64,000 nt of DNA from a virus. Location: IMG/VR virus record IMGVR_UViG_3300009448_000012, positions 10,558-74,557 of that record; one strand, given 5' to 3'. Positions 25,227 through 54,695 of the stretch are shown here, piece after piece. The notes under the pieces are model-generated. The model was not told the DNA's origin. It made no database searches and worked only from the letters and a program-made list of their open reading frames with translations. Made by a program: the position numbers and the translations under genes. The number at the start of each line of letters is the position of its first letter. The stretch's first letter is position 1.

Positions 25227-25382
25227 CACACATTCTCCATTTTGCGTTCCGGGGAACCCCGGACCGGATGGAACCAAGTCCACCAAGTAAGGCGTTGCTT
25301 GTTTCTTTGGCAGCTTTCCGTTCCAACGTTTGTTAGACTGCGCTTGGAACGGTAAAGGATCAGTGGGGCCTGTCTTCTGATT

Positions 25383-25415
25383 ACTAATGTATGCTCACTT
25401 GTGCTCACCGTCAAT
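25383..25415 (-). promoter_or_regulatory. sigma70-type promoter with operator box in the spacer
   Basis: TTGACG-N17-TACATT; spacer contains TGAGCACAAGTGAGC. Confidence 0.7.
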
Positions 25416-34279: not shown

Positions 34280-34473
34280 TGGGGAACCCCTAAGAGATGA
34301 TTGCCAAGGTGATGATTAAGCCGGTCAGGATAATGGTCACGAAGATGATCGGACCCGCCCGGCGCTGGAGGTTGTAAGTCGCCTTGTACCGGCGCCACGG
34401 GTCCGAGAGGACGAACAGGGCGGCGCCGGCGAGGACCAACAAGGCGAGGGTTAGCGGTGTGATGGTCACAGGT

Positions 34474-35079
34474 TCATTCCCCGCGCAGCCATTGACGGAT
34501 CAAGTCCAGGTCGTCGAAGTCCTGGTCGTTCATCATGCAAATGACGTCGAGCATGAACCGGACGTTCTCGCGCGACACCGGCTTGCCGGACGCAAAAAGA
34601 AAGCGGGACATGATCGCGGTCGCCTTGTCGAAAGTGCGAACCTTGGTTTCTTCGGTCACGGCCTCGGCGACCAGGGCTGACGACGCCTTCAGCGCGTCGA
34701 CGACCGGCGCGGTCGGGCGCTGCTCGACCAGCTCGTGACGGTGGGCGACGTAATCCAGCATTTCTTGCTGGTACGCGCGCAGCTTGGGCGCGCGCGGCGT
34801 CGCCAGCGCGGCCGCTTCCTCGGCGGTGAGCTTCTTCCCGCTGACGACCGCGTGTTCGGTCTTGTCGGCGTACAGAACGGGCGACATGCTGTACCGACCT
34901 TGCGGGTCGATTGCCTCGACGCCGTCGATCACGCGGATCGTGCGGCGGACTTCCTCGCCGCGAACCTTGATCCACACGCATTTGTCGGTGCGGCGGATGA
35001 TCTCGAAAGCGAAGATGGTGTCATAGTCGGCGCTGGAGCGGGCGGCGTAGGACTGGCCGGGAACGAATTTGATGGTCAT
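34474..35079 (-). CDS. hypothetical cassette gene
   Basis: Starts MTIKF directly after a type-A leader. Confidence 0.75.
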   Translation of the reverse strand: MTIKFVPGQSYAARSSADYDTIFAFEIIRRTDKCVWIKVRGEEVRRTIRVIDGVEAIDPQGRYSMSPVLYADKTEHAVVSGKKLTAEEAAALATPRAPKLRAYQQEMLDYVAHRHELVEQRPTAPVVDALKASSALVAEAVTEETKVRTFDKATAIMSRFLFASGKPVSRENVRFMLDVICMMNDQDFDDLDLIRQWLRGE

Positions 35080-35132
35080 GACGGGGAACCCCTTGAGAGT
35101 GGCGGGCGCCGCGCGGGCGCCCTGGTTGGTGG

Positions 35133-35285
35133 TCAGTTCTTGCGGAAGCTGCGAACGATCTCGCGACGAAAACCGGGCGAAAGCTGGTGCCACTGATCCT
35201 CGGTCCCCGCGAACGCGCCAAGCGCGACGGCTTCGGCGTGGGTCGGCGTCGGGCTGGCAGGCTTCCATGCGTGATATCTGGCCAT
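35133..35285 (-). CDS. 50-aa hypothetical cassette gene
   Basis: MARYHAW after a type-B leader. Confidence 0.7.
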   Translation of the reverse strand: MARYHAWKPASPTPTHAEAVALGAFAGTEDQWHQLSPGFRREIVRSFRKN

Positions 35286-35358
35286 CTTGGGGAACCCCTT
35301 GAGAGAACCGGGCGACACCGCGCCGCCCGTGCTTTCGTTTCTATAGGCTCACTCGTGC

Positions 35359-36777
35359 TCAGTCAAGCGGTATGTCACTAAATCGTTCCAGGGTGAGCGG
35401 GTCGACGTGCAAGTGATGTTGCGCCCTGGTGATCGCGACATAGAACAGCCGGCGTTCTTCCAAGCTGATGTTGGCGTCGTCGTCCTCGGCGTCGCCGCGC
35501 ATGAAGTCGTCATTGATCGCCACGGAAGGCCATTCCAGCCCCTTGGCCTTGTGACCCGTGGCGAGCGTGACGCAACCTGTCACCGGCTTGTCGCGGATCT
35601 GCTCCAGGACCCGCCGGAGCTTGCTACAGCCGTATTTGCCGACCAGATTGACGAAGACCTTCAGGGACGCCCCTTCGTCCGTGGCGGCGTATTCCTGGAC
35701 CTTGCTCCAGGTCTCGAAACCAAGCAGCTCGCCGGCCTTGGGCAACCGGCCGTTCTGAAGCCCGTCCGCGTCGTCGACCAGCGCGCGCAGCTCGCCGGCG
35801 CCCTTGGGCGTGTAGACGATCCGGCCGGCGTCCAGATACCGGAAGGCGTTTTCGATCAGCCCGGTGTTCGTGCGGACCAGGACCGCGTCGACGCCGGCGG
35901 GACGACCGCCGCTGACGGTGTCACGAATGACGCTGTGACCATGAAGCGGGTACTTTTCGCCCATGGCGGTCAGCACGCCGTTCGCGGCGGCCGCGATCTG
36001 GTCGCCGAAGCGGAAGGACTTCGTCAGCCGGCATTCATGACCCGGCAAGATGGTCAGGGCGTCTTTGGCGCCGCGCCATGCATAGATCTGCTGATGACTG
36101 TCGCCGACCGCGATGATCTGGGCTTCCTGGTTCCGGATCACGCCGAGGACGACGCCGTTCGTGTCCTGGGCTTCGTCGACCAGGATGAAGTCGAACCGCA
36201 AGCGCGGATTGCTCAGCGCCCAAAGCTTCACGTATCCGTCGCCGCCCAAGGGCATGTCGTCCGCCGGGTCGGTCATGTGCGACCAGACGTCGGCGGCCGC
36301 GACCGGCGCCCATTTATAGAAGAATTCCTGGACCTCGGTCGTCATGCCGGGCACGCGCGGAACAAAGAATTCCGTGATCGAGCGCGAATCGGACTGACAG
36401 AAACGGGTCAGCACGCTGGCGACGATCGACTTGAAGATGTCCGGGTTTACCGGAAGCTTGTCCTTGACGCATGAAATGTCGAAGCTCCAGGACTTCGGCG
36501 ACTTGCGAAGCTTGCGTTCCGGGTCGAACCCGCGATCGGCGACCGCGCGAAAGGCGAGGCTGTGCGTCGTGCGGCACTCGACGTTGTAGGGGAATTTCAG
36601 GCGGGCGTCGGTCGCAACCGACGTGTTGAACGCCATGTAAAGCCCGCGATAGGTCTTCATCTGGATCGCGAAATTCACAAGGGTCGAGGTCTTGCCGGCG
36701 CCGGCGAAGGCGATGAACTTCGTCGGGAGCCGCTTCATCGCATAGTCGATCGCGTAACATTGTTCGGGCGTGAGCAT
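35359..36777 (-). CDS. UvrD/Rep-family (SF1) DNA helicase
   Basis: AFAGAGKT, DEAQD, GDSHQQIY, KSFRFG, HKAKGLEW, YVAITRA. Confidence 0.93.
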   Translation of the reverse strand: MLTPEQCYAIDYAMKRLPTKFIAFAGAGKTSTLVNFAIQMKTYRGLYMAFNTSVATDARLKFPYNVECRTTHSLAFRAVADRGFDPERKLRKSPKSWSFDISCVKDKLPVNPDIFKSIVASVLTRFCQSDSRSITEFFVPRVPGMTTEVQEFFYKWAPVAAADVWSHMTDPADDMPLGGDGYVKLWALSNPRLRFDFILVDEAQDTNGVVLGVIRNQEAQIIAVGDSHQQIYAWRGAKDALTILPGHECRLTKSFRFGDQIAAAANGVLTAMGEKYPLHGHSVIRDTVSGGRPAGVDAVLVRTNTGLIENAFRYLDAGRIVYTPKGAGELRALVDDADGLQNGRLPKAGELLGFETWSKVQEYAATDEGASLKVFVNLVGKYGCSKLRRVLEQIRDKPVTGCVTLATGHKAKGLEWPSVAINDDFMRGDAEDDDANISLEERRLFYVAITRAQHHLHVDPLTLERFSDIPLD

Positions 36778-36781
36778 GGCG

Positions 36782-37144
36782 CTAGACCTTCAGGAATTGA
36801 ACGGGAAGCTCGGGATCATATGCAAGGATCTCGGTCACTTCCTTCGCGGTCAAAGGCTTGCCGTCCGTCTTGCCGTTCACCGCGACATATCCGCCGGCGA
36901 TCTTGCTGGTCAACGTGCTGACATGGATCACGACGCTGATCGGATAGGTCACGACGGGAAGGTTCGCGCGATAGACGACTTCGACCTTCAGTTCAGCTTT
37001 GTCGCGAAGCCCGGCGACATAGGTCTTGCATGCGACGAGCGTGGGGAATTTCGTGAACAGCTCGCGGGCGGCGTCTTCGCGCGTGTCATGCGCGGTGGAG
37101 CACACCGGACCGTCGCCGCGTATGATGGCTGAAGCAGTGAACAT
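36782..37144 (-). CDS. hypothetical cassette gene
   Basis: ATG after a type-A leader. Confidence 0.75.
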   Translation of the reverse strand: MFTASAIIRGDGPVCSTAHDTREDAARELFTKFPTLVACKTYVAGLRDKAELKVEVVYRANLPVVTYPISVVIHVSTLTSKIAGGYVAVNGKTDGKPLTAKEVTEILAYDPELPVQFLKV

Positions 37145-37197
37145 GATGGGGAACCCCTTGAGAGTGGCGGGCGCCGCGCGGGCGCCCTGGTTGGTGG

Positions 37198-37401
37198 TCA
37201 GCGGGCGAAATGGGTCCAGTGTGCGTTCAGACGGTCGCGATCGGTTGCGCCGGCATAAAGGGAGTGGACACCGGTCGGACCGTACATCCGAAATTCGTTG
37301 TCACTTTTGCAGTAAATCAGCTTGCAAGTCCGGTCGGCGCTCATGACGAAAGCACCGGACTTATTGAGAAGCTTCGCGAACTGTTGGGTCGTGATATTCA
37401 T
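37198..37401 (-). CDS. hypothetical cassette gene
   Basis: ATG after a type-A leader. Confidence 0.75.
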   Translation of the reverse strand: MNITTQQFAKLLNKSGAFVMSADRTCKLIYCKSDNEFRMYGPTGVHSLYAGATDRDRLNAHWTHFAR

Positions 37402-37454
37402 TTGGGGAACCCCTTGAGAGTGGCGGGCGGCTCGCGGCCGCCCTGGTTGGTGAA

Positions 37455-37586
37455 TTATTTCCGAGGCGCTTTGATAGTGGCTTCAAGGGCGGCGATACGG
37501 CGGACCATTTCTTTTCTTGTTATCATGCCGTCCCGGTGGTGTTGCTTGGCGTCTTCGATGTACAGCTTGACTTCATCGTTCGTCAT
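37455..37586 (-). CDS. 43-aa hypothetical cassette gene
   Basis: MTNDEV after a type-B leader. Confidence 0.7.
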   Translation of the reverse strand: MTNDEVKLYIEDAKQHHRDGMITRKEMVRRIAALEATIKAPRK

Positions 37587-37588
37587 CT

Positions 37589-37686
37589 GGGGAACCCCTT
37601 GAGAGAACCGGGCGACACCGCGCCGCCCGTGCAACAAGTCATAAAGGCTCACTTGTGCTCAGTCAAGATTAAAAATCTTTTTAATT
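37589..37686 (-). promoter_or_regulatory. type-B element (AT-rich inverted repeat, promoter, hairpin, leader); near-identical at 38770-38867 and 40411-40508, variant at 35289-35367
   Basis: ATTAAAAA-GA-TTTTTAAT, then TTGACT-N17-TATGAC, GGGCG..CGCCC hairpin, CTCTCAAGGGGTTCCCC. Confidence 0.85.
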
Positions 37687-38307
37687 TTTCCAGGCGTTGA
37701 GCGCCGCGCGTGCGGCTGCTTCCCTGGTGGCGAAGCGGCGGAAACCGCCGGAAATGGTCACAAGGTCCTGATAACTCGCACCGTCGAACTTCCACGCGGA
37801 CCAGCGCTTGTTGCTTTTGACGCCGCTCGACCCGGCCGTCGAGACGGTGACGGTGATGACCTTGTCGCCGTGACCCTTGATCACCGTCTTCCATTGCCGG
37901 GCGCTTGAACCTTGCAAGAACGTCTGACCGCCGATCTCGAAGCTTTCCAGCTTGGCGGCGCGGGTCGCTTCGTCGCGGGCGTCCGCTTGGGCGATGCGAT
38001 GGTCGAGGTCGGTTTTGCCGGTGCTGTCGATCGGCAGGGCGCGCAGCTCGGCGGCGACGTTGCTGCCCAACGCAACACCGCGATGAACCGTCGCCTCGAT
38101 CCGCATGTCGCCGACGCGGGCGAAGGCTTGCGTATACCGGATGACGACGGGATGACGCTCCAGGCGGACCAGGATGTCGTCGAGGCATTCGCCCATGTTC
38201 AGCGCGAGCGCGAACACGCGATTGACGAAGCGGGTTTCGCGGGTCTCGCCGGCGTCGATCGCGTCGGCAAGTTCGGCGTTGGTCATGGTCTTGATCGGTT
38301 TGGTCAT
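37681..38307 (-). CDS. hypothetical cassette gene
   Basis: MTKPIK after a type-A leader; stop codon lies inside the next element. Confidence 0.75.
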   Translation of the reverse strand: MTKPIKTMTNAELADAIDAGETRETRFVNRVFALALNMGECLDDILVRLERHPVVIRYTQAFARVGDMRIEATVHRGVALGSNVAAELRALPIDSTGKTDLDHRIAQADARDEATRAAKLESFEIGGQTFLQGSSARQWKTVIKGHGDKVITVTVSTAGSSGVKSNKRWSAWKFDGASYQDLVTISGGFRRFATREAAARAALNAWKN

Positions 38308-38365
38308 AGCGGGGAACCCCTTGAGAGTGGCGGGCGCCGGCGATGCCGGGCGCCCTGGTTGGTGA

Positions 38366-38548
38366 TCAGCGGCAGGACAGGACGAAGGCGAGAGCGGTCC
38401 TCGGCGACTTGGCTTGAACCCAGCCATTGTTACAGCGAAGGACGCGGCGATCGTCGTCGTCGTAGCACAGATATAGGCCGTGCTCGTTGCAGGTCTTGAG
38501 CGCTTCGACGACCATGTTCCAAGATGTGGAGCGGCGGCGGAATGTCAT
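38366..38548 (-). CDS. hypothetical cassette gene
   Basis: MTFRRRS after a type-A leader. Confidence 0.65.
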   Translation of the reverse strand: MTFRRRSTSWNMVVEALKTCNEHGLYLCYDDDDRRVLRCNNGWVQAKSPRTALAFVLSCR

Positions 38549-38601
38549 AACGGGGAACCCCTTGAGAGTGGTGGGCGCCGCGCGGGCGCCCTGGTTGGTG
38601 A

Positions 38602-38766
38602 TTAGATCAGGCGAGATTCGACCCAATGGATTTCACCGAATGCGTCTTCGAAACGCCAAGCCATTTTAGAGGCTTCTGTTTCTGAAACGAAAGTCATGGG
38701 CGTGCGGTCTTGGTTGCAAACCAGCATGAATTTGTCGTTTTGCATGAAACGGATGACGAAGATCAT
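38602..38766 (-). CDS. hypothetical cassette gene
   Basis: MIFVIRF after a type-B leader. Confidence 0.7.
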   Translation of the reverse strand: MIFVIRFMQNDKFMLVCNQDRTPMTFVSETEASKMAWRFEDAFGEIHWVESRLI

Positions 38767-38861
38767 ATCGGGGAACCCCTTGAGAGAACCGGGCGACACC
38801 GCGCCGCCCGTGCAACAAGTCATAAAGGCTCACTTGTGCTCAGTCAAGATTAAAAATCTTT

Positions 38862-39667
38862 TTAATTCACGACCCGGTATTCGAGGCGCGTCAACCATCC
38901 CGACATATCGGGAAATCCGTCCGGGTCGGTGTATCCGTCCAGCCCGATGAACCGGCTTTCGCCGGTGTGCTCGCCGGTCAGTTGGGTGATGTAAACGATC
39001 AAGCCTTCCTGGATCAGCATGAAGCCGACACCGTCTTTCGCGAGCACCGCCCTTGTGATCATGATGCTGAACCCTTTGGTTGAATGTTACCGGCGAACCG
39101 GCTTGCGTTTGGGAAGGTCCTCGACGATCTCGCGTTGCTCGCCGGGCAAGCCCGACCGGTTGTCGCTGTAGGCTTGCGCAAGCTCGCGCGTCTCGAAGCG
39201 CATGTGCGCGCCGCGATTGGCGATGAACCATTTCCACACGACCCGCCCTTCGAACCGGTACCGGATGCGGAAGCGGCGCGGACCGTCGTCGACCTTCTTC
39301 ACCAGCCGACTGACGACCTCGAACAGCTCGGACAGGCGCGGGCACATCGTCGGGCCGATCGGAAGCGCGACGATCTCGGCGAGCAGTTCGCGGGCTTCCT
39401 GCGCGGTCATGTCGACCTGGATTGCGTCGGTCATGACTGCTCCGCCTTCAGCTCGATGATCTCGAAATGGACGTCGGTGATCAGTTCTTGCATGTGATGG
39501 CGGATGCGCAGTTCGGCTGATGCGCGGGACGCGGCGAACTGCGCATAATGGCGGGTGACGCCTTGGGCGGTTTCGCCGACGATCAGCCACGCGAACGGGC
39601 GGATGCGGGCGGTTTCCTGATTCGGAATATTCAGGACGTGACCGGTCGTGAAGATGACTTGCTTCAT
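38862..39667 (-). other. three-gene cassette (39431-39667, 39087-39434, 38862-39062)
   Basis: First ATG follows a type-A leader; first two genes overlap by ATGA. Confidence 0.65.
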
Positions 39668-39724
39668 GGGGGAACCCCTTGAGAGTGGCGGGCGCCGGCC
39701 GGAGCCGGGCGCCTTGGTTGCGGC

Positions 39725-40408
39725 CTAGTCGAGGATGAAGGTTTTCAGCCAAGCGGGGCCGTGCGAGTTGCGCAGGGCGTACACGACGGCTTCGGCGTCG
39801 GTGGTGGTGACGGCGCGTTCCCAAAGCTTGCGGATGTCGCGTTTCCAGTTGCGCGAGTCGCGAATGATGAAGGTCGTCAGGGCGGCTTTTTGCTCGGCGG
39901 TCAGCGGGGCGTGAGCCGCCTTGCGGCCCTTTCGGGCCGGTTTGGCGGGCTTGGCGGCCGGCGTGTCGTCGACGACCTCATAGGTCGTTCCGTCGCGGCT
40001 GGCGGCGACATAGGTCGCCATGCTGGCTTCAGCGCCGGCGCGGGTTTCGAAACGCGCATCCTGGTTGCTGCTACCGTTGCCGATGTGGAACGACCGGCCG
40101 TCCTTATAGGTGTACTTGATCCGGAAGGGCTGGCGGGCGGTCAGCTCGGCTTTCCACGCCTTGGCGTCGTGCTCGACGGTCGGGACGATCTCGATCGCGC
40201 CGTCCGTGGTCTTGCGAGCGGACTGCCATGCTGCGGCGGCTTTCTGTGCGAGGTCGTGACGGCTGCTGAAGCCGGTTTCAACCGCGTTGCCGTACTTGGG
40301 ATGGTTGCTGACGGCTTTCCAGGCGAAGGCGAGCTTCATGGTCGTCGAGCGATGGACGAAGGAACCGTCCTTGAAGGTGGCGACCAGGGTGATTTTTTTG
40401 GCGGGCAT
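39725..40408 (-). CDS. hypothetical multi-module cassette gene
   Basis: MPAKKIT after a type-B leader. Confidence 0.75.
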   Translation of the reverse strand: MPAKKITLVATFKDGSFVHRSTTMKLAFAWKAVSNHPKYGNAVETGFSSRHDLAQKAAAAWQSARKTTDGAIEIVPTVEHDAKAWKAELTARQPFRIKYTYKDGRSFHIGNGSSNQDARFETRAGAEASMATYVAASRDGTTYEVVDDTPAAKPAKPARKGRKAAHAPLTAEQKAALTTFIIRDSRNWKRDIRKLWERAVTTTDAEAVVYALRNSHGPAWLKTFILD

Positions 40409-40480
40409 TGGGGGAACCCCTTGAGAGAACCGGGCGACACCGCGCCGCCCGTGCAACAAGTCATAAAGGCTCACTTGTGC

Positions 40481-40702
40481 TCAGTCAACATTAAAAATCT
40501 TTTTAATTTTCGGGATCGCCGCGACGCTGGTTTCAGGGTGGATCTTACGGAACTTGACCGCCGGCTTACGGACGTTGCGACCGTACTGGTCGACGATGGT
40601 CACGCCGGCGCGACCGCGCGATGCGTCGCGGATCTCGGTCAGGCTGGCGAACGCCTTGGGCTCGATCTCGCCGGTGCTGGTGTTCTTGACGCGGTATGTC
40701 AT
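40481..40702 (-). CDS. hypothetical cassette gene
   Basis: ATG abuts the leader; C-terminus is encoded by the type-B element. Confidence 0.7.
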   Translation of the reverse strand: MTYRVKNTSTGEIEPKAFASLTEIRDASRGRAGVTIVDQYGRNVRKPAVKFRKIHPETSVAAIPKIKKIFNVD

Positions 40703-40796
40703 GGGGAACCCCTTGAGAGGGCGACCGTCAGGTCGCTGTGAGAGTGGTGGGCGCCCGGCACGGACCGTTTAGGCCGTGGTGCGAGCGCCCTGGTGA

Positions 40797-40970
40797 CTAG
40801 CTGACTGCTTCGACCGAATAGATCACGTCCTTGTCGAGGTTGGCCATCTCGCACCGGACTGAGTAATTCTCGGCGGTGTGCCTCGTCAGCGGCTCGCCGC
40901 GCATGTTGGTCGTGGCGACGATCTCGACTTCGTTCGTGACCTTGTTCGTCTTAATGACTTGGTAGTTCAT
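40797..40970 (-). CDS. 57-aa hypothetical protein (not in ORF track)
   Basis: MNYQVIKTNKVTNEVEIV...; GGAG RBS; first gene after the promoter at 41006-41035. Confidence 0.65.
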   Translation of the reverse strand: MNYQVIKTNKVTNEVEIVATTNMRGEPLTRHTAENYSVRCEMANLDKDVIYSVEAVS

Positions 40971-41005
40971 GGCGCTTTCTCCAAAGCTTCGTTGCCGATG
41001 AACTG

Positions 41006-41035
41006 AACATAAGGCTCACTCGTGCTCACCGCAAG
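41006..41035 (-). promoter_or_regulatory. sigma70-type promoter with operator box
   Basis: TTGCGG-N17-TATGTT; spacer TGAGCACGAGTGAGCCT. Confidence 0.7.
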
Positions 41036-41037
41036 AC

Positions 41038-43098
41038 CTAAAACAATAATTTATTGGTCTCGGCGATATAATGGTCGTAATCGATATCGGGAATGTGCTC
41101 GCCGTCATAAACGTCTTGTACCTTCACCTTGCGGGTATGGTGGAATTCGGCGTGTTCTTCGAATTCATATTTGTATTTGAAGCGCGGACCATGTTCGCCG
41201 CATTGCGAGCACCGAAAGTCGCCCTTGGGTCCGTAGCAGGTCGCCAGCAACTCGGCGAACAGCGCGAACCGGCGCCATTCGTCCGGCTTTTTCGCGGTGG
41301 GCGGCATCAGTTTGAAGATCGGCTGACCGGCCGGGCTCACGTAATAGCGGGTTGTTTGCTGGCATTCGGTCCCGTCGCCGAGGATCAGCCGCGATTGCCC
41401 TGTGACCTTGGCGCGTGCGAGGAAGTCCCATTGGTCCGGGTGGCGGTGGATGAAGTCGGTCGGGTCATGATCATCACAAAGCGCCGCATCGGCCGCACGC
41501 GGGATCACCAACATCGAATGGTCCTTGTGCCACGCCTTTTGCTTGCCGACCTTCAGTTCGAAATCATAGGCGCCTTTGCGTTTCCGCTTGCCGGCTTCGT
41601 CCTTGTTGATCGCGTCCATGTTGTATTCGCCGATGTAGCTGTTCACATCGCGGATGAACATGCGCCCGTAATGCAGCTTCTCCAGCTTCATTTGCGTGAC
41701 CGATTGCCACCAGTCGCACACCGCGTCGAACTGCGCGCGCATCACGCGCGGAAACTTCAACGTCATGCCGTCCGTGTTGACCTGAAGGATCTCCAGGCTG
41801 GGCACGGCCGCCAGAAACCGTTCGGCCAGCATGACCAGCATGAGTTGCCCGTTCACCGTGATCGCCATGGTGTATTGCGGGTCGTAAAACGGTCCGTGCA
41901 TGTTGTTCGAATCGCCGTAAACGCCGTTGTTCGCGAGCTTCAGCGCGTCGGACTTGACCATGTCCTTGATCGCCTTCGCCGCGACGCGTTGGGCTTTCAG
42001 CTCGCGATAGACCTCGACGAACAGCGGTCCGAGGTGGGCAGGGTACAAGCCCCATTCGATGGCGATCGAGGGATAGAAGGCTTCGACGTCGACGTCGACG
42101 ATCTCGTAAATCGCGTCGGCGACGACCGCGCGCCGCGTCACCGACCCGTGCAAGCCGCCCGTGCCGAACACCATCGTGAAGCCGTCGACGCTGGCCTTCA
42201 GGTTCTTGAAGACGCCCTTCGTCTCGACCTTGGCGGATTTCAGCTCGCCGGCTTCGATCTCCAGCGGGTTCAGCACCTTCGCCTTGAGCGTTTCGAGCAC
42301 CGCGTTCGGTTCCGGATTGTCGAACCTGATCCACGGGAAGATCACATCGGCAAGGGCGACGCTGTTCCGCCACGTCTGGCGCGGCTGGCGCCGGCCGTTG
42401 ACCTTATCAAAGCAGATGCCGGGCGATCGTTCTTCGAGCGCTTTGGTGAAGAAGGATTTCCCGATTTTGGTGTCGTTATCGTTCAGATGACGTTCGCCGA
42501 GTTGTTCGCGAAACCCGATCATCTCCATCGTTTCCCAAGCGAATTTCTTGGTACTGAACAGGTCGTTCCGGTTGTAGTCTAGACCGATATCCATTTCCGC
42601 ATGCGTCAAGACCTTCGTATGATGGAAGGGCATTTCCTGGACGCGGCGGGCGCGCATGTTCATCTGAAGCGTCTTCAGGCTGGTCATGCGGTTCTTGTTG
42701 TCGAAATGGTGGATCAGCCGTAAGTCGACCTGCTTCACCAGTTCATCGCGATAGTGGACCCGGTGAATCCAGGACGGACCGCCTCGCTTGCCGTTCTCGA
42801 TGATCTCGGTCGCGAACAGCTTCAGGTTCGCGCAGATCTGGAGCGCCGGCGTCCCGGCGTCGATCAGCTCGACCGCGCGGTGGATGATCGGATAGTCGAA
42901 ACTGAGATTATTGAAGCCGTACATCCGGCGGAAATATCCGGAGCGCAGCACCGACACCATAAGAGGACCGTCGTTCCGGCGATCGCTGATTTCATAGATC
43001 CAGGTTGTATCGTCACCCTTGGTCAACGGGGTGAACCCTAGACAGAACCAGTTCGGAAGGGTCTCGACGTCGCCGATGGTGTCGATCCATGCGTTCAT
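41038..43098 (-). CDS. family B DNA polymerase with 3'-5' exonuclease domain
   Basis: DVET and GFNNLSFD (exo); DVEAFYPSI, KLANNGVYG, NTDG (PolB motifs). Confidence 0.9.
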   Translation of the reverse strand: MNAWIDTIGDVETLPNWFCLGFTPLTKGDDTTWIYEISDRRNDGPLMVSVLRSGYFRRMYGFNNLSFDYPIIHRAVELIDAGTPALQICANLKLFATEIIENGKRGGPSWIHRVHYRDELVKQVDLRLIHHFDNKNRMTSLKTLQMNMRARRVQEMPFHHTKVLTHAEMDIGLDYNRNDLFSTKKFAWETMEMIGFREQLGERHLNDNDTKIGKSFFTKALEERSPGICFDKVNGRRQPRQTWRNSVALADVIFPWIRFDNPEPNAVLETLKAKVLNPLEIEAGELKSAKVETKGVFKNLKASVDGFTMVFGTGGLHGSVTRRAVVADAIYEIVDVDVEAFYPSIAIEWGLYPAHLGPLFVEVYRELKAQRVAAKAIKDMVKSDALKLANNGVYGDSNNMHGPFYDPQYTMAITVNGQLMLVMLAERFLAAVPSLEILQVNTDGMTLKFPRVMRAQFDAVCDWWQSVTQMKLEKLHYGRMFIRDVNSYIGEYNMDAINKDEAGKRKRKGAYDFELKVGKQKAWHKDHSMLVIPRAADAALCDDHDPTDFIHRHPDQWDFLARAKVTGQSRLILGDGTECQQTTRYYVSPAGQPIFKLMPPTAKKPDEWRRFALFAELLATCYGPKGDFRCSQCGEHGPRFKYKYEFEEHAEFHHTRKVKVQDVYDGEHIPDIDYDHYIAETNKLLF

Positions 43099-43442
43099 AT
43101 GCGGGTCCTGGTCCTGGTTCGCGGGATGGTGCAGCGCATGCGCATATACAGGGCGTCGAGCGCCGCTTGCGGGTCGGTGGGTAGCTCGCCGGTGATGTCC
43201 CGGATCATGCGCATCGCCGAGCACTGGCGCAAGGTGATCTCGACGGCGCCGTGTGCGATCGCGGCCGCGCGCTTGGTCATGGCGACGTCGTAGTGATCGC
43301 CCTGGTACCAGTGCCGCGCCACGCCGATCGCGGCCGCCATGGCGTGCAATTCACCCTCGGTCGTCGCGATCATGTGCGACATGCGCATGCCGCGAAAGCG
43401 ACCCATATCCGACCGGTGCATGTCGTCGACGAAGACCGTCAC
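43095..43442 (-). CDS. DUF4031-family protein
   Basis: VFVDDM, SHMIA, ELHAMA..IG, WYQGDHYD. Confidence 0.8.
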   Translation of the reverse strand: MTVFVDDMHRSDMGRFRGMRMSHMIATTEGELHAMAAAIGVARHWYQGDHYDVAMTKRAAAIAHGAVEITLRQCSAMRMIRDITGELPTDPQAALDALYMRMRCTIPRTRTRTRI

Positions 43443-48209: not shown

Positions 48210-48289
48210 AGGGGAACCCCTTTAGGGCGCTAGGGCCAGAGATGGCGGGACGGTCGCGGCGACCGCCCGCTGTTGCATGCGAGGCGAGA

Positions 48290-48451: not shown

Positions 48452-48525
48452 TGTCGTTCCTTTGGTTGCGGTTCAAAAAGCTCAGTACGGTTCATATAGG
48501 CTCGGATGCGTTACGCTTGCAAGCG

Positions 48526-49943: not shown

Positions 49944-51179
49944 TTAGACGACCGGGTCAGCTTCCCATGCGGTCCGCGTCGCGTTCGGCCGGAAGCCGGG
50001 CGTCGCTGGCCAGCCGGCGGCCGCCGCGAGTACGGCGCTTTCGGCCTGGATCTGCGCGGCCGTGCGAGGCGCCGGCGGCGTCAAGAACCCCGGATGCGGG
50101 CTCACCGGCGGCGGGGGCGGATTACCAGGGGACGCAGTCGTCGAGCCAAGCGGATCTGTAGAAGGGGCAGGGACCGGCGACGCGCCGGCCGGGACACCCT
50201 GGACGCCCGCACCGGCTAAAGGGTCAGAAGGGTAAGCAGTGGTCGCACCACCAGCGGGCGGCGTGGTATGGGTCGGCGCCGATGTAGCCAAAGGAACCGG
50301 GGACGCGAGCGAACCGGGCGGTGTCGGTAATGCAGCCGCAAGCGGGGCAGTGACCGTCTGTTCCAAAGGGTCCGGGTCATAGCCGCTCCGATCGGCCTTC
50401 AGCCGGTGTCCGGGATAGTGCTGAACCCCGGCATCGGCCGCGATCTTGGCGCTGATCTGTTCCTGGGTCATCACCGGCGCGACAGGCGCCACGGGAGCGG
50501 GCGGCGGCGGTGCTGGTGGTGCGGGCGGCGTGGGGCTCGGCACGGCCGGAGCGCCGCCGGGCGTGGTATTGCCGGCGACTGGCAGGGCGCTGGCGCCGGG
50601 CGGCAACGTCGCCTGATGCTGCGCGAACAGTTGCGCCGCTGTCGGGCCTTGCTGGATCACCGGACCATAGCCGAGCAGGCGGACGCAGTTGGGATTGAGA
50701 TAGATCCCCGCGTTCTTGTCGGTCAGCATGTTGCAGGCCATCGCGCCGGCGACGTCGACGTAAAATCCGCACTCGATCAGCGCCGGGTCGATCGGCTGGT
50801 CCTGCGCGTTGGCGCATTTGATCGGGAACAGCGACGTCGAGAACCGGAAGATCCAGCAACCTGCGAAGCCTTCGCGGTTCCGGTTCTTTTCGCTGTCGCC
50901 GTCCTCAATCTTCCAGGCGAAGTTCGGCGCGCCGAGGCCCTGGTTGATCTGTGCCATGATACCGGCGTTCTGCTGATAGCCGCTGACCGCAACCTGTTTG
51001 GCCAACTGGATCACCGGCATCACGCGGGCGTCGGTCTTGGGCACGGCGACGCCGAAGAAGGCGGTCGGCTTCTCACGCTCGCGACCCTGCTGATCGGTCG
51101 TCTGAACGGTATGAGGGTCGCCCATGACGATCCGGCCGGGCGGCAAATAAAAGGGCGTGTTCTGTGTCTTAGGCGCCAT
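49944..51179 (-). CDS. single-stranded DNA-binding protein (DUF2815-like) with long Pro-rich tail
   Basis: PGRIVMGDP, WKIEDGD, GIYLNP; adjacent to the DUF2800-like gene. Confidence 0.75.
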   Translation of the reverse strand: MAPKTQNTPFYLPPGRIVMGDPHTVQTTDQQGREREKPTAFFGVAVPKTDARVMPVIQLAKQVAVSGYQQNAGIMAQINQGLGAPNFAWKIEDGDSEKNRNREGFAGCWIFRFSTSLFPIKCANAQDQPIDPALIECGFYVDVAGAMACNMLTDKNAGIYLNPNCVRLLGYGPVIQQGPTAAQLFAQHQATLPPGASALPVAGNTTPGGAPAVPSPTPPAPPAPPPPAPVAPVAPVMTQEQISAKIAADAGVQHYPGHRLKADRSGYDPDPLEQTVTAPLAAALPTPPGSLASPVPLATSAPTHTTPPAGGATTAYPSDPLAGAGVQGVPAGASPVPAPSTDPLGSTTASPGNPPPPPVSPHPGFLTPPAPRTAAQIQAESAVLAAAAGWPATPGFRPNATRTAWEADPVV

Positions 51180-51183
51180 GTGA

Positions 51184-52317
51184 TTATGATCCTGACTTCA
51201 TTGCAGCTTTGAACAGTTTCGCGATTGCGGATTGTGTCGCGGGAACCAGCTTCCGCCCTGCTGGGTCCCGTTTTACGACCATAGGGTCATTCGTAATTCG
51301 GACGTCGGCACCTTCCCTTTCCATTTCCGCCGGCGTCTTGGGGACTTGCTTATAAGGGTCGACACCGGTCAGCATGCCGACGATATCCATCGGAAGCGCG
51401 AATTCGCGGTCCTTGGTCCGCTGCTCGAACATCCATCCGGGAATAAACTCGCCGCGCAGCATGCGCCCTTCGACCTCGGCGGCGACGCCGGACTTGCGCG
51501 CCTTGATCAGGGCGCCGGCGATCTCCAGGAACGAGGCTTCGGCGCCGAGCGCGGCCGCGCTCATTGCTTCCATGCGGCCGCCGCGTATGCCTTCGAAGAT
51601 GGTGTAAATCGAGGTCGTCAGCGCCTCGCACCGCGCGCGGCCGCCGCACTGTGTACACCAGGGACCGACTCGACCTTGGGGATCGCCGGCGAGCGCGGCA
51701 AAGGCTTTGCTCGCAAGCCAATTATACCACGTCGTCAGCTCCGGTTCATCGACCCGCCAGTCGCGAATCTTCCCGTCCGGATGGTGCGGGCGCGGCTGAT
51801 AGATCGTCATGATCACATCGTCGTGCTTTTCCGGGTCGAAGGTCGCGAGCGCTTCGCAGATCAGTTGCGGATTGCCCGTGACCTCGATCGGCAACCAGCC
51901 GTATTTCAGTTCGACGATATGCAGGGTGGACGAATTCGCGATCACCATGCTGTCCAGTCGTCCATTGATGGACAAATGCGGAATGCTTACCTTGACTTGC
52001 GTGTGGACTACCTCGCCGAGCGACTGGCAGTAATCGACATATCCCTGGACGTGCTGGACCATGTCGGCGGTCACGATCCAGCCGTTCGGCGCGGTCTCGC
52101 CGAAGAACTCGCCGGCGCTGACCGCGTCACCGCGCAGCACGCCGTTCGCGACCCAATCGGCCGCCTGACCTTCTCGCCGGGCGTCGGTGTCGTTCGGGTC
52201 GTCGTCGATCGGCGGCGGCAAACCGTCGAGCGCGCCGGCGGGTCCTCGGCGGGACAGTTGCGCGGTCAGCGCGCAGTTCGTCCATAAATGGGCGGTCGAA
52301 GGTGTCAACATTTCCAA
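51184..52317 (-). CDS. DUF2800 / Cas4-like PD-(D/E)XK nuclease
   Basis: PS.AH.W..C; GRLD...ELKYG; NPQL; IYQPR; GPWCTQC.....C. Confidence 0.85.
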   Translation of the reverse strand: MEMLTPSTAHLWTNCALTAQLSRRGPAGALDGLPPPIDDDPNDTDARREGQAADWVANGVLRGDAVSAGEFFGETAPNGWIVTADMVQHVQGYVDYCQSLGEVVHTQVKVSIPHLSINGRLDSMVIANSSTLHIVELKYGWLPIEVTGNPQLICEALATFDPEKHDDVIMTIYQPRPHHPDGKIRDWRVDEPELTTWYNWLASKAFAALAGDPQGRVGPWCTQCGGRARCEALTTSIYTIFEGIRGGRMEAMSAAALGAEASFLEIAGALIKARKSGVAAEVEGRMLRGEFIPGWMFEQRTKDREFALPMDIVGMLTGVDPYKQVPKTPAEMEREGADVRITNDPMVVKRDPAGRKLVPATQSAIAKLFKAAMKSGS

Positions 52318-54680: not shown

Positions 54681-54695
54681 TGAGCACAAGTGAGC
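54681..54695 (+). promoter_or_regulatory. operator box at the divergence point
   Basis: Exact TGAGCACAAGTGAGC between divergent genes. Confidence 0.65.

Follow-up and report, generated by a model that had tools for sequence, protein, structure and literature searches.

What is the use of a short sequence that stands, unchanged, directly ahead of eleven different genes of one phage? This is the question raised by a block of leftward genes in IMG/VR virus record IMGVR_UViG_3300009448_000012, a 74,557-bp record with a CheckV completeness of 91%. The stretch analyzed here, called the window, comprises 64,000 nucleotides (bases 10558-74557 of the record), and all coordinates refer to it. A preliminary description had reported 11 exact copies of a 17-bp core lying 0-3 nt before start codons, each copy within a larger repeated element, and had proposed that these elements form an integrase-free, integron-like platform for the exchange of genes. 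The copies and their placement are found as described, and all 11 start codons are ATG. As for their function, the repeats are probably standardized, reusable cis-acting expression leaders that serve a block of accessory genes on the leftward strand.

A fixed ribosome site ahead of eleven genes

In the sense of the genes, which lie on the minus strand, the core reads CTCTCAAGGGGTTCCCC (GGGGAACCCCTTGAGAG on the plus strand). Its 11 exact copies fall between 35083 and 40719, with plus-strand starts at 35083, 35289, 37148, 37404, 37589, 38311, 38552, 38770, 39669, 40411, and 40703, and the whole record contains these same copies and no others. When up to three mismatches are allowed, 12 occurrences are observed versus 0.10 in shuffles. 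In every case the core is followed after 0-3 nt by an ATG and an open frame of 43-227 codons, always in one orientation, and the AAGGGG of the core is placed 6-9 nt from the ATG, which is the canonical Shine-Dalgarno spacing. A role of the core in translation initiation is suggested by its constant spacing to the start codon, by the fact that all copies face the same way, and by ATG being the only start codon used. Other genes of the phage have ribosome sites of the AGGGG(TT) or GGAG type, and the 17-mer is found in none of them.

The segment GGGGTTCCCC is an interrupted inverted repeat. It was considered as a true DNA palindrome and this was rejected, given that its reverse complement is GGGGAACCCC; for this reason, the copies of the core are detected on one strand only.

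Among 2.9 million viral contigs the exact core is private to this phage, with no match in any other, and none of 50,697 phage records was matched by blastn. Elsewhere the exact core is present in 46 metagenome and 23 genome stretches, as single chance matches apart from two exceptions, and one of these is a 3-kb contig that carries two copies in an unrelated context. The shorter pattern AAGGGGTTCCCC-N0-3-ATG occurs in 109 viral stretches, with a single match in each of the 80 that were listed. The other exception is a Phenylobacterium locus, where GGGGAACCCCTTGAGAG is conserved immediately ahead of a host gene starting MIGLVIVTHG, as it is at many soil metagenome loci; the motif lies there on the opposite strand relative to its usage in the phage, and is probably a coincidence.

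The hairpin and the two types of element

Ahead of each copy of the core, at a distance of 3-4 nt, there is a GC hairpin of 7-8 bp. A search of the window for the hairpin motif gave 15 strand hits covering nine elements, versus 0.26 expected, and one unrelated match. Across the 11 copies, 92% of the stem cells are paired, a share that falls to 39-61% if the partner column is displaced by 1-3 positions, and one stem position covaries between C-G, G-C, and G·U. The G·U pair belongs to the four elements of type B (see below) and would be an A·C mismatch on the opposite strand, indicating that folding is favored on the sense transcript. A search of Rfam gave no match, and no U-tract follows the hairpins; likewise, a terminator scan called no intrinsic terminator at the elements.

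The elements are of two types, six of type A and four of type B, with one composite, which is the division made in the preliminary description. Type A elements carry no promoter and occupy the entire gap of 53-58 nt between the upstream stop and the ATG, in agreement with the claim that the elements fill the intergenic space. Their order is constant: stop, (C/T)CACCAACCA, the hairpin GGGCGCC-5 nt-GGCGCCC, GCCA, core, 0-3 nt, and ATG. Element A1 (35080..35132; this and all the following elements are on the minus strand) consists of the stop with CCACCAACCA, the hairpin GGGCGCC/CGCGC/GGCGCCC, GCCA, the core, and GTC before the ATG of a 201-aa gene, and A2 (37145..37197), ahead of a 120-aa gene, is the same as A1 over ~50 nt. 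In A3 (37402..37454), ahead of a 67-aa gene, the stem carries a compensatory change (GGGCGGC/GCCGCCC). A4 (38308..38365) has an extra CGGC/GCCG stem and precedes an orphan gene of 208 aa, A5 (38549..38601) precedes a 60-aa gene, and A6 (39668..39724), with a lengthened hairpin on an AGGCGCC base, precedes a 78-aa gene.

Type B elements have a -35 hexamer TTGACT, the box TGAGCACRAGTGAGC in the spacer, TATGAC or TAGAAA at 17 nt, the hairpin CGGGCGGC-5 nt-GUCGCCCG, GUU, and the core. In three of them, the -35 hexamer is directly preceded by an AT-rich inverted repeat, AATTAAAAAGATTTTTAAT. The three are B1 (37587..37686, ahead of a 43-aa gene), in which AATTAAAAAGATTTTTAAT is followed by TTGACT-17-TATGAC with the box, the hairpin, and the core; B2 (38767..38867, ahead of a 54-aa gene), which is 98% identical to B1; and B3 (40409..40508, ahead of a 227-aa gene), which is 96% identical to B1 and B2. 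Over ~100 nt the three copies are 96-98% identical, and immediately outside the identity drops to 13-35%, the level of chance. In general, the identity from copy to copy stops sharply at the ATG and at the upstream stop. The fourth copy, B' (35286..35366), is without the AT block and has TTGACT, the box in the form TGAGCACGAGTGAGC, TAGAAA at 17 nt, the hairpin CGGGCGGC/GUCGCCCG, and the core, ahead of a 50-aa gene.

The composite element (40703..40796), ahead of a 73-aa gene, is of type A, and its long hairpin retains the usual base stem. After CTCTCA, a second hairpin of 19 nt, CAGCGACCTGACGGTCGCC, interrupts the core, which then resumes with CTCTCA; the 19-nt hairpin has the appearance of a small insertion accompanied by a duplication of 6 nt. 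The hairpin loops of A4 and A6 likewise hold extra palindromic inserts. In A4, A6, and the composite, the base stem has been kept despite lengthened hairpins with further stems in the loop.

For four genes, the stop codon lies within the element that follows, as was also claimed, and this element is always of type B. The 208-aa gene (ending at 37681) and a 66-aa gene (ending at 38862) have a TAA stop in the AT block of B1 and B2, respectively. The 73-aa gene (ending at 40481) runs through the AT block and the -35 hexamer of B3 to the TGA of the box (TTGACTGA), and the gene of a UvrD-like helicase (ending at 35359) stops at the TGA of the box of B' (TTGACTGA).

Putative promoters and their shared box

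The 15-nt box TGAGCACRAGTGAGC is present seven times, at 25393, 35347, 37647, 38828, 40469, and 41014 on the minus strand and at 54681 on the plus strand. All six minus-strand copies lie with -35 and -10 hexamers spaced by 17 nt, and the position of the box shifts by ~1 nt. Such an arrangement fits sigma-70-type promoters that share an extra spacer element, and the box is probably the operator of a phage regulator.

Two of the putative promoters with the box, at 25393-25407 and 41014-41028 (minus strand), have neither hairpin nor core. The second (41006..41034, minus strand) consists of TTGCGG, the box in the form TGAGCACGAGTGAGC, and TATGTT at 17 nt, and is placed ahead of a 57-aa gene (40797-40970) whose ribosome site is a plain GGAG. 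Behind the first there is a long leader that contains, at 25251-25267 (minus strand), the stable hairpin UCCGGGGUUCCCCGGA, a strengthened variant of the core segment GGGGUUCCCC. The plus-strand copy of the box (54681-54695) has no clear -35 hexamer and lies where the leftward block and the rightward helicase-primase genes diverge.

Further members of the family are less complete. A degenerate core, TCTCTTAGGGGTTCCCC (34280..34297, minus strand), stands without a hairpin 2 nt ahead of the ATG of a 126-aa gene, and a weaker match, CAACCAAAGGGTTCAGC, is at 39063 (minus strand). An outlying member with the core variant CCCTAAAGGGGTTCCCC (48210..48272, minus strand) has its own hairpin of 11 bp and 1 nt between core and ATG; beginning at 48211, it lies outside the range covered by the preliminary description. 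The sequence CAACCAAAGG was seen right before the starts of two genes (39063-39086 and 48452-48475, minus strand), and resembles a type A element minus the hairpin and the CTCTC part (CAACCA + AAGG...).

The gene block and its cargo

The G+C content of the window is ~62%. The window was found in two groundwater metagenome DNA runs, one of which may be the source sample, and no RNA run carrying it is listed. Both are represented by contig sets, apparently of the same strain.

The leftward block runs from ~54650 to ~22400 and includes an exonuclease, a Gp2.5-like protein, the DNA polymerase, and the UvrD-like helicase, with the array directly downstream of the polymerase. The array block is a putative early region. 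The polymerase frame (41038..43224, minus strand) adjoins the array on its upstream side, and its true start lies inside this frame, given that the database gene call is 686 aa. The closest match of the polymerase is Rhizobium phage P106B (40%), followed by Klebsiella or Edwardsiella phages of 43-56 kb, the whole set falling within 38-40%. Among 5.8 billion protein clusters it has 17 relatives at 58-64% identity, three of which are on contigs of 61-73 kb.

The Gp2.5-like single-strand binding/annealing protein (49944-51179, minus strand) and the exonuclease (51184-52317, minus strand) are candidates for the phage's own recombination functions. Neither a tyrosine recombinase (PF00589) nor a serine recombinase (PF00239) was matched anywhere in the 91%-complete record, with positive controls, and the genome contains no integrase or resolvase. 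The description of the array as integrase-free is thus correct.

The genes of the array had been described as mostly unrelated small open reading frames. Indeed, they have no Pfam or PHROG matches except for the UvrD-like superfamily 1 helicase (35359..36777, minus strand), an ordinary phage helicase and member of a conserved family, which lies inside the array, lacks a separate leader, and begins 4 nt beyond the 120-aa gene. The 201-aa gene departs from this picture, since it belongs to a widespread family. Its protein (34474-35079, minus strand) has an N-terminal domain of ~75 aa, for which 1.84 billion representatives contain 624 hits (E <= 0.001), often in the form of stand-alone proteins of 75-100 aa. 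Pfam and PHROG contain no family for the protein, and it has five or six full-length relatives (44-54% identity). At the other extreme, the 5.8 billion protein clusters contain no relative of the 208-aa gene and one partial relative of the 227-aa gene (39725-40408, minus strand).

Third-position G+C is mostly 0.75-0.87 in the cargo frames, which is typical of real genes in this phage. In three small cargo genes (37455-37586, 38602-38766, and 37198-37401, minus strand) it is 0.58-0.68, versus ~0.8 in the rest of the genome, and these genes may be of recent foreign origin.

Regarding structure, the AlphaFold single-sequence model of the 227-aa protein has a predicted local distance difference test score (pLDDT) of 39.5 and is unusable. 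In the Atlas model of this protein, residues 1-82 resemble small proteins automatically named "WGR domain" (template modeling score 0.77-0.79, taken from their side), which is a weak lead. Atlas features gave no usable match for either of the two cargo proteins that were searched, and the structural look-alikes are to be read as weak leads. Anti-defense or host-takeover roles of the cargo, as had been suggested, are pure conjecture.

Function of the elements

As an expression leader, each unit would consist of a GC hairpin followed by a fixed translation-initiation region, CUCUC-AAGGGG-UUCCCC, that supplies the Shine-Dalgarno sequence. Four of the units would add a host sigma-70-type promoter (TTGAC-17-TA...) with an operator-like box in its spacer, and in three of these four an AT-rich, UP-like block would be added as well. 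The type B transcript would start such that the hairpin is at or near its 5' end, and in type A the hairpin would be found between cistrons, ~22-25 nt before the ATG and just beyond the footprint of the ribosome. The hairpin would most likely stabilize the mRNA and shield the ribosome site from the upstream gene, so that any gene placed behind the leader would be expressed alike. A by-product of this arrangement would be direct repeats of 50-100 bp at the borders of genes, which may act as joints for the phage's own recombination enzymes and permit genes to be deleted, duplicated, or swapped, as has been proposed for the promoter-early stem-loops (PeSLs) of T4-type phages. By analogy with PeSLs, exchange by homologous recombination at the repeats likely happens, and shuffling of genes at these sites is plausible.

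Several observations weigh against the elements being expression leaders. The covariation concerns a single stem position, among paralogous copies within one genome. Single-sequence folding energies are no better than those of shuffles in this GC-rich DNA, with the exception of the composite (z = -4.1), and the predicted accessibility of the ribosome site is not higher in the elements than in other genes (0.50 versus 0.47, p = 0.21). Given that the energies are ordinary and the accessibility unchanged, the case for the structure is made by conservation and not by energy. A generic E. coli-type promoter scan did not call the type B promoters, and their -10 hexamers, TATGAC and TAGAAA, are weak and do not have the usual final T; for this reason, the promoters are treated here as putative. 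Finally, the exact conservation of 17 nt is unexplained by ribosome binding alone. An identity that goes beyond the need of ribosome binding suggests either a shared trans-acting factor or homogenization by recombination.

The first of these two possibilities would refine the expression-leader reading, and we hold it as a tentative one: the core may be an RNA operator at which a trans-acting phage factor, either a translational repressor or a site-specific RNase, switches the whole set of genes off (or on) jointly, in the manner of T4 RegA or RegB or of the coat-protein hairpin operators of RNA phages. The identity of 17 nt in 11 copies exceeds what a Shine-Dalgarno sequence requires, and the class would be distinguishable given that the ribosome sites of the other phage genes differ. 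A small hairpin, GGG-GUUC-CCC, can form within the core and shows up in several predicted ensembles, and its stabilized version, UCCGGGGUUCCCCGGA, is found in the other leader behind the same promoter box. In phage T4, both RegB and RegA act at initiation regions (PMC3014915). On the other hand, this mini-hairpin is only marginally stable, no candidate regulator was found, with no RegA- or RegB-like protein seen in family scans of the cargo, and recent homogenization by recombination would explain the identity of the copies equally well.

A related proposal seems unlikely to us, namely that hairpin and core together are a phage-specific regulon tag by which a phage factor times the translation or decay of ~13 mRNAs, with the tags doubling as recombination joints that wire captured genes into this control. 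If it were true, recognition of the core would include the GGG-GUUC-CCC mini-hairpin that overlaps the Shine-Dalgarno sequence.

It is also doubtful that the array is a dedicated platform for cassette exchange, in which the elements are mainly recombination joints and turnover of genes, achieved without an integrase, is the function under selection. Direct repeats of 50-100 bp do bound almost every gene, three of them 96-98% identical with flanks at the level of chance, and with stops and starts built into the elements a gene would remain intact after exchange. Relatives are absent for the 208-aa gene and limited to a partial one for the 227-aa gene, as against the 17 relatives of the polymerase at 58-64%, and third-position G+C is lowered in three small genes (0.58-0.68 versus ~0.8). 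The phage has its own annealing protein and exonuclease, and the mini-circles of PeSLs provide a precedent (PMC2839356). Nonetheless, no variant, breakpoint, or circle was observed in the two contig sets, which apparently represent one strain; there is neither a recombinase nor an attC-like site; the 201-aa gene and the helicase are members of conserved families; and the locked distance to the ATG, the Shine-Dalgarno content, and the G·U pair on the sense strand follow from a role in expression, whereas recombination does not account for them. The term "integron-like" used in the preliminary description is overstated: as the array lacks both a recombinase and attC-type sites, genes could be exchanged here only by ordinary homologous recombination, the route proposed for PeSLs.

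As single protein queries against viral contigs, the helicase and the polymerase gave nothing, and an alignment of the polymerase clade, as well as one polymerase relative alone, gave at most 45% identity. The search with an alignment of the 201-aa family gave matches to the N-terminal domain only. Approximately 150 loci of distant polymerase relatives were scanned for dispersed exact 13-mers, and one plain promoter repeat was found, at three loci; otherwise the top-ranked 13-mer repeats at those loci were closely spaced coding repeats. The contigs from the groundwater runs break at the repeats. The only contig joint across repeats, from 37588 to 40411, was rejected as evidence of exchange, because it extends 4 nt past a shared repeat of 78 nt at a depth of 3.6 and may be a chance path of the k-mer assembler. 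Other contig joints lie outside the elements and show low likeness.

It is quite improbable that the hairpins act on transcription, as attenuators or terminators or as nut/boxA-like antitermination sites, with the position of the core being incidental. A GC hairpin is present in every gap, and CUCUCAA is faintly similar to boxA, CUCUUUAA. The stem-loops of PeSLs do terminate transcription in reporter tests (PMC2839356). However, the elements have no U-tract and were negative in the terminator scan, five promoters in 5.7 kb have no need of a processive antitermination site for each gene, and the distance to the ATG, fixed within 3 nt, points to translation.

Even though the 19-nt hairpin insert of the composite is flanked by a 6-nt CTCTCA duplication and the loops of A4 and A6 hold extra palindromic inserts, a selfish or mobile repeat similar to a miniature inverted-repeat transposable element, spreading into intergenic gaps and merely tolerated there, is extremely improbable, since there are no terminal inverted repeats and no transposase, the copies are limited to one 6-kb block and one orientation and end 0-3 nt before an ATG, and none is found in 2.9 million viral contigs, with chance single matches in metagenomes and genomes.

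Should the core turn out to be a regulatory operator, it would offer a way into the co-regulation of fast-evolving early genes by phages, and if exchange at the repeats were confirmed, the array would be a non-T4 example of cassette shuffling without a recombinase. As expression leaders, the elements may serve as compact, insulated expression parts for GC-rich hosts.

Comparison with known systems

The array shares with integrons its rows of short and mostly unrelated genes bounded by structured repeats, as well as promoter-less genes, some of which use upstream promoters. It differs in having no IntI and no other tyrosine or serine recombinase. Furthermore, attC sites are imperfect palindromes of 57-141 bp at the 3' end of a cassette, whereas here a hairpin of 19-24 nt and a ribosome site are found at the 5' end of the gene.

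The T4 proteins RegB, which cuts within the Shine-Dalgarno sequence of early mRNAs, and RegA, which binds the translation-initiation regions of many mRNAs (PMC3014915), offer a functional analogy only, that of a class of mRNAs with a recognizable ribosome-site motif that can be used for joint shut-off. The T4 motifs are short and degenerate (GGAG, or A/U-rich around the AUG), unlike the core described here, and no RegA or RegB homologue was seen in this phage.

The analogies drawn in the preliminary description, with PeSLs (PMC2839356) and with the start-associated sequences (SAS/ESAS) of cluster K mycobacteriophages (PMC3203893), hold. SAS are 13-bp repeats located 3-7 bp ahead of mostly ATG starts, in one orientation and in the non-structural half of the genome; about half of the copies have an upstream inverted repeat, and their function is unknown (Pope et al. 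2011, PMC3203893). Like SAS, the core is a short asymmetric repeat with G-run and C-run ends that holds the Shine-Dalgarno sequence (GGGATAGGAGCCC in SAS versus AAGGGGTTCCCC here), and it is found a few nt before the start, in one orientation, and ahead of non-structural genes only, with the upstream stop sometimes inside. In position the agreement is close, the copies here lying at 0-3 nt from 11 of 11 ATG starts, all on the minus strand, in a block on the replication side. The two differ in sequence, host group, and phage lineage: the 13-bp consensus GGGATAGGAGCCC is not matched, and the core, CTCTCAAGGGGTTCCCC, is longer and exact. Every canonical copy here has an upstream hairpin, and four copies are fused to a putative promoter. 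In contrast to the present hairpin with its compensatory change, the repeats of ESAS reportedly lack support for pairing at the RNA level (PMC3203893).

PeSLs were described in T4-type phages by Arbiol, Comeau and Krisch 2010 (PMC2839356) and Comeau et al. 2014 (PMC4122927), and have the layout stop in an AT-rich block, -35/-10, stem-loop, Shine-Dalgarno sequence, and ATG (PMC2839356). As judged from sequence, type B elements share this layout, with the stop in the AT block, sigma-70-like -35 and -10 hexamers, a GC stem-loop, a Shine-Dalgarno sequence, and the ATG. They also share the occurrence of conserved copies of ~100 bp ahead of genes without known function, including the near-orphan 208-aa and 227-aa cargo, in a phage that has its own recombination genes and no site-specific recombinase. 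The phage, however, is not T4-type, with a genome of 74.5 kb and a polymerase closest to the one of Rhizobium phage P106B, and its elements are unrelated to PeSLs in sequence. Their stem-loop forms part of the leader, past the -10 hexamer, and lacks a U-tract, and most of the copies (type A) have no promoter, while one exact 17-nt ribosome-site core is common to all. The defining evidence for PeSLs is exchange at the repeats together with mini-circles, whereas the present elements are known from their sequence.

The array belongs to neither the PeSL nor the SAS/ESAS class, though its layout resembles both. The design of these systems, one reusable leader for many accessory genes that are unrelated to each other, is thus also present in an uncultured groundwater phage of high G+C content from a separate lineage. 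It takes a clean two-tier form here: some copies bear a putative promoter and others do not, but the hairpin and the ribosome site are common to all.

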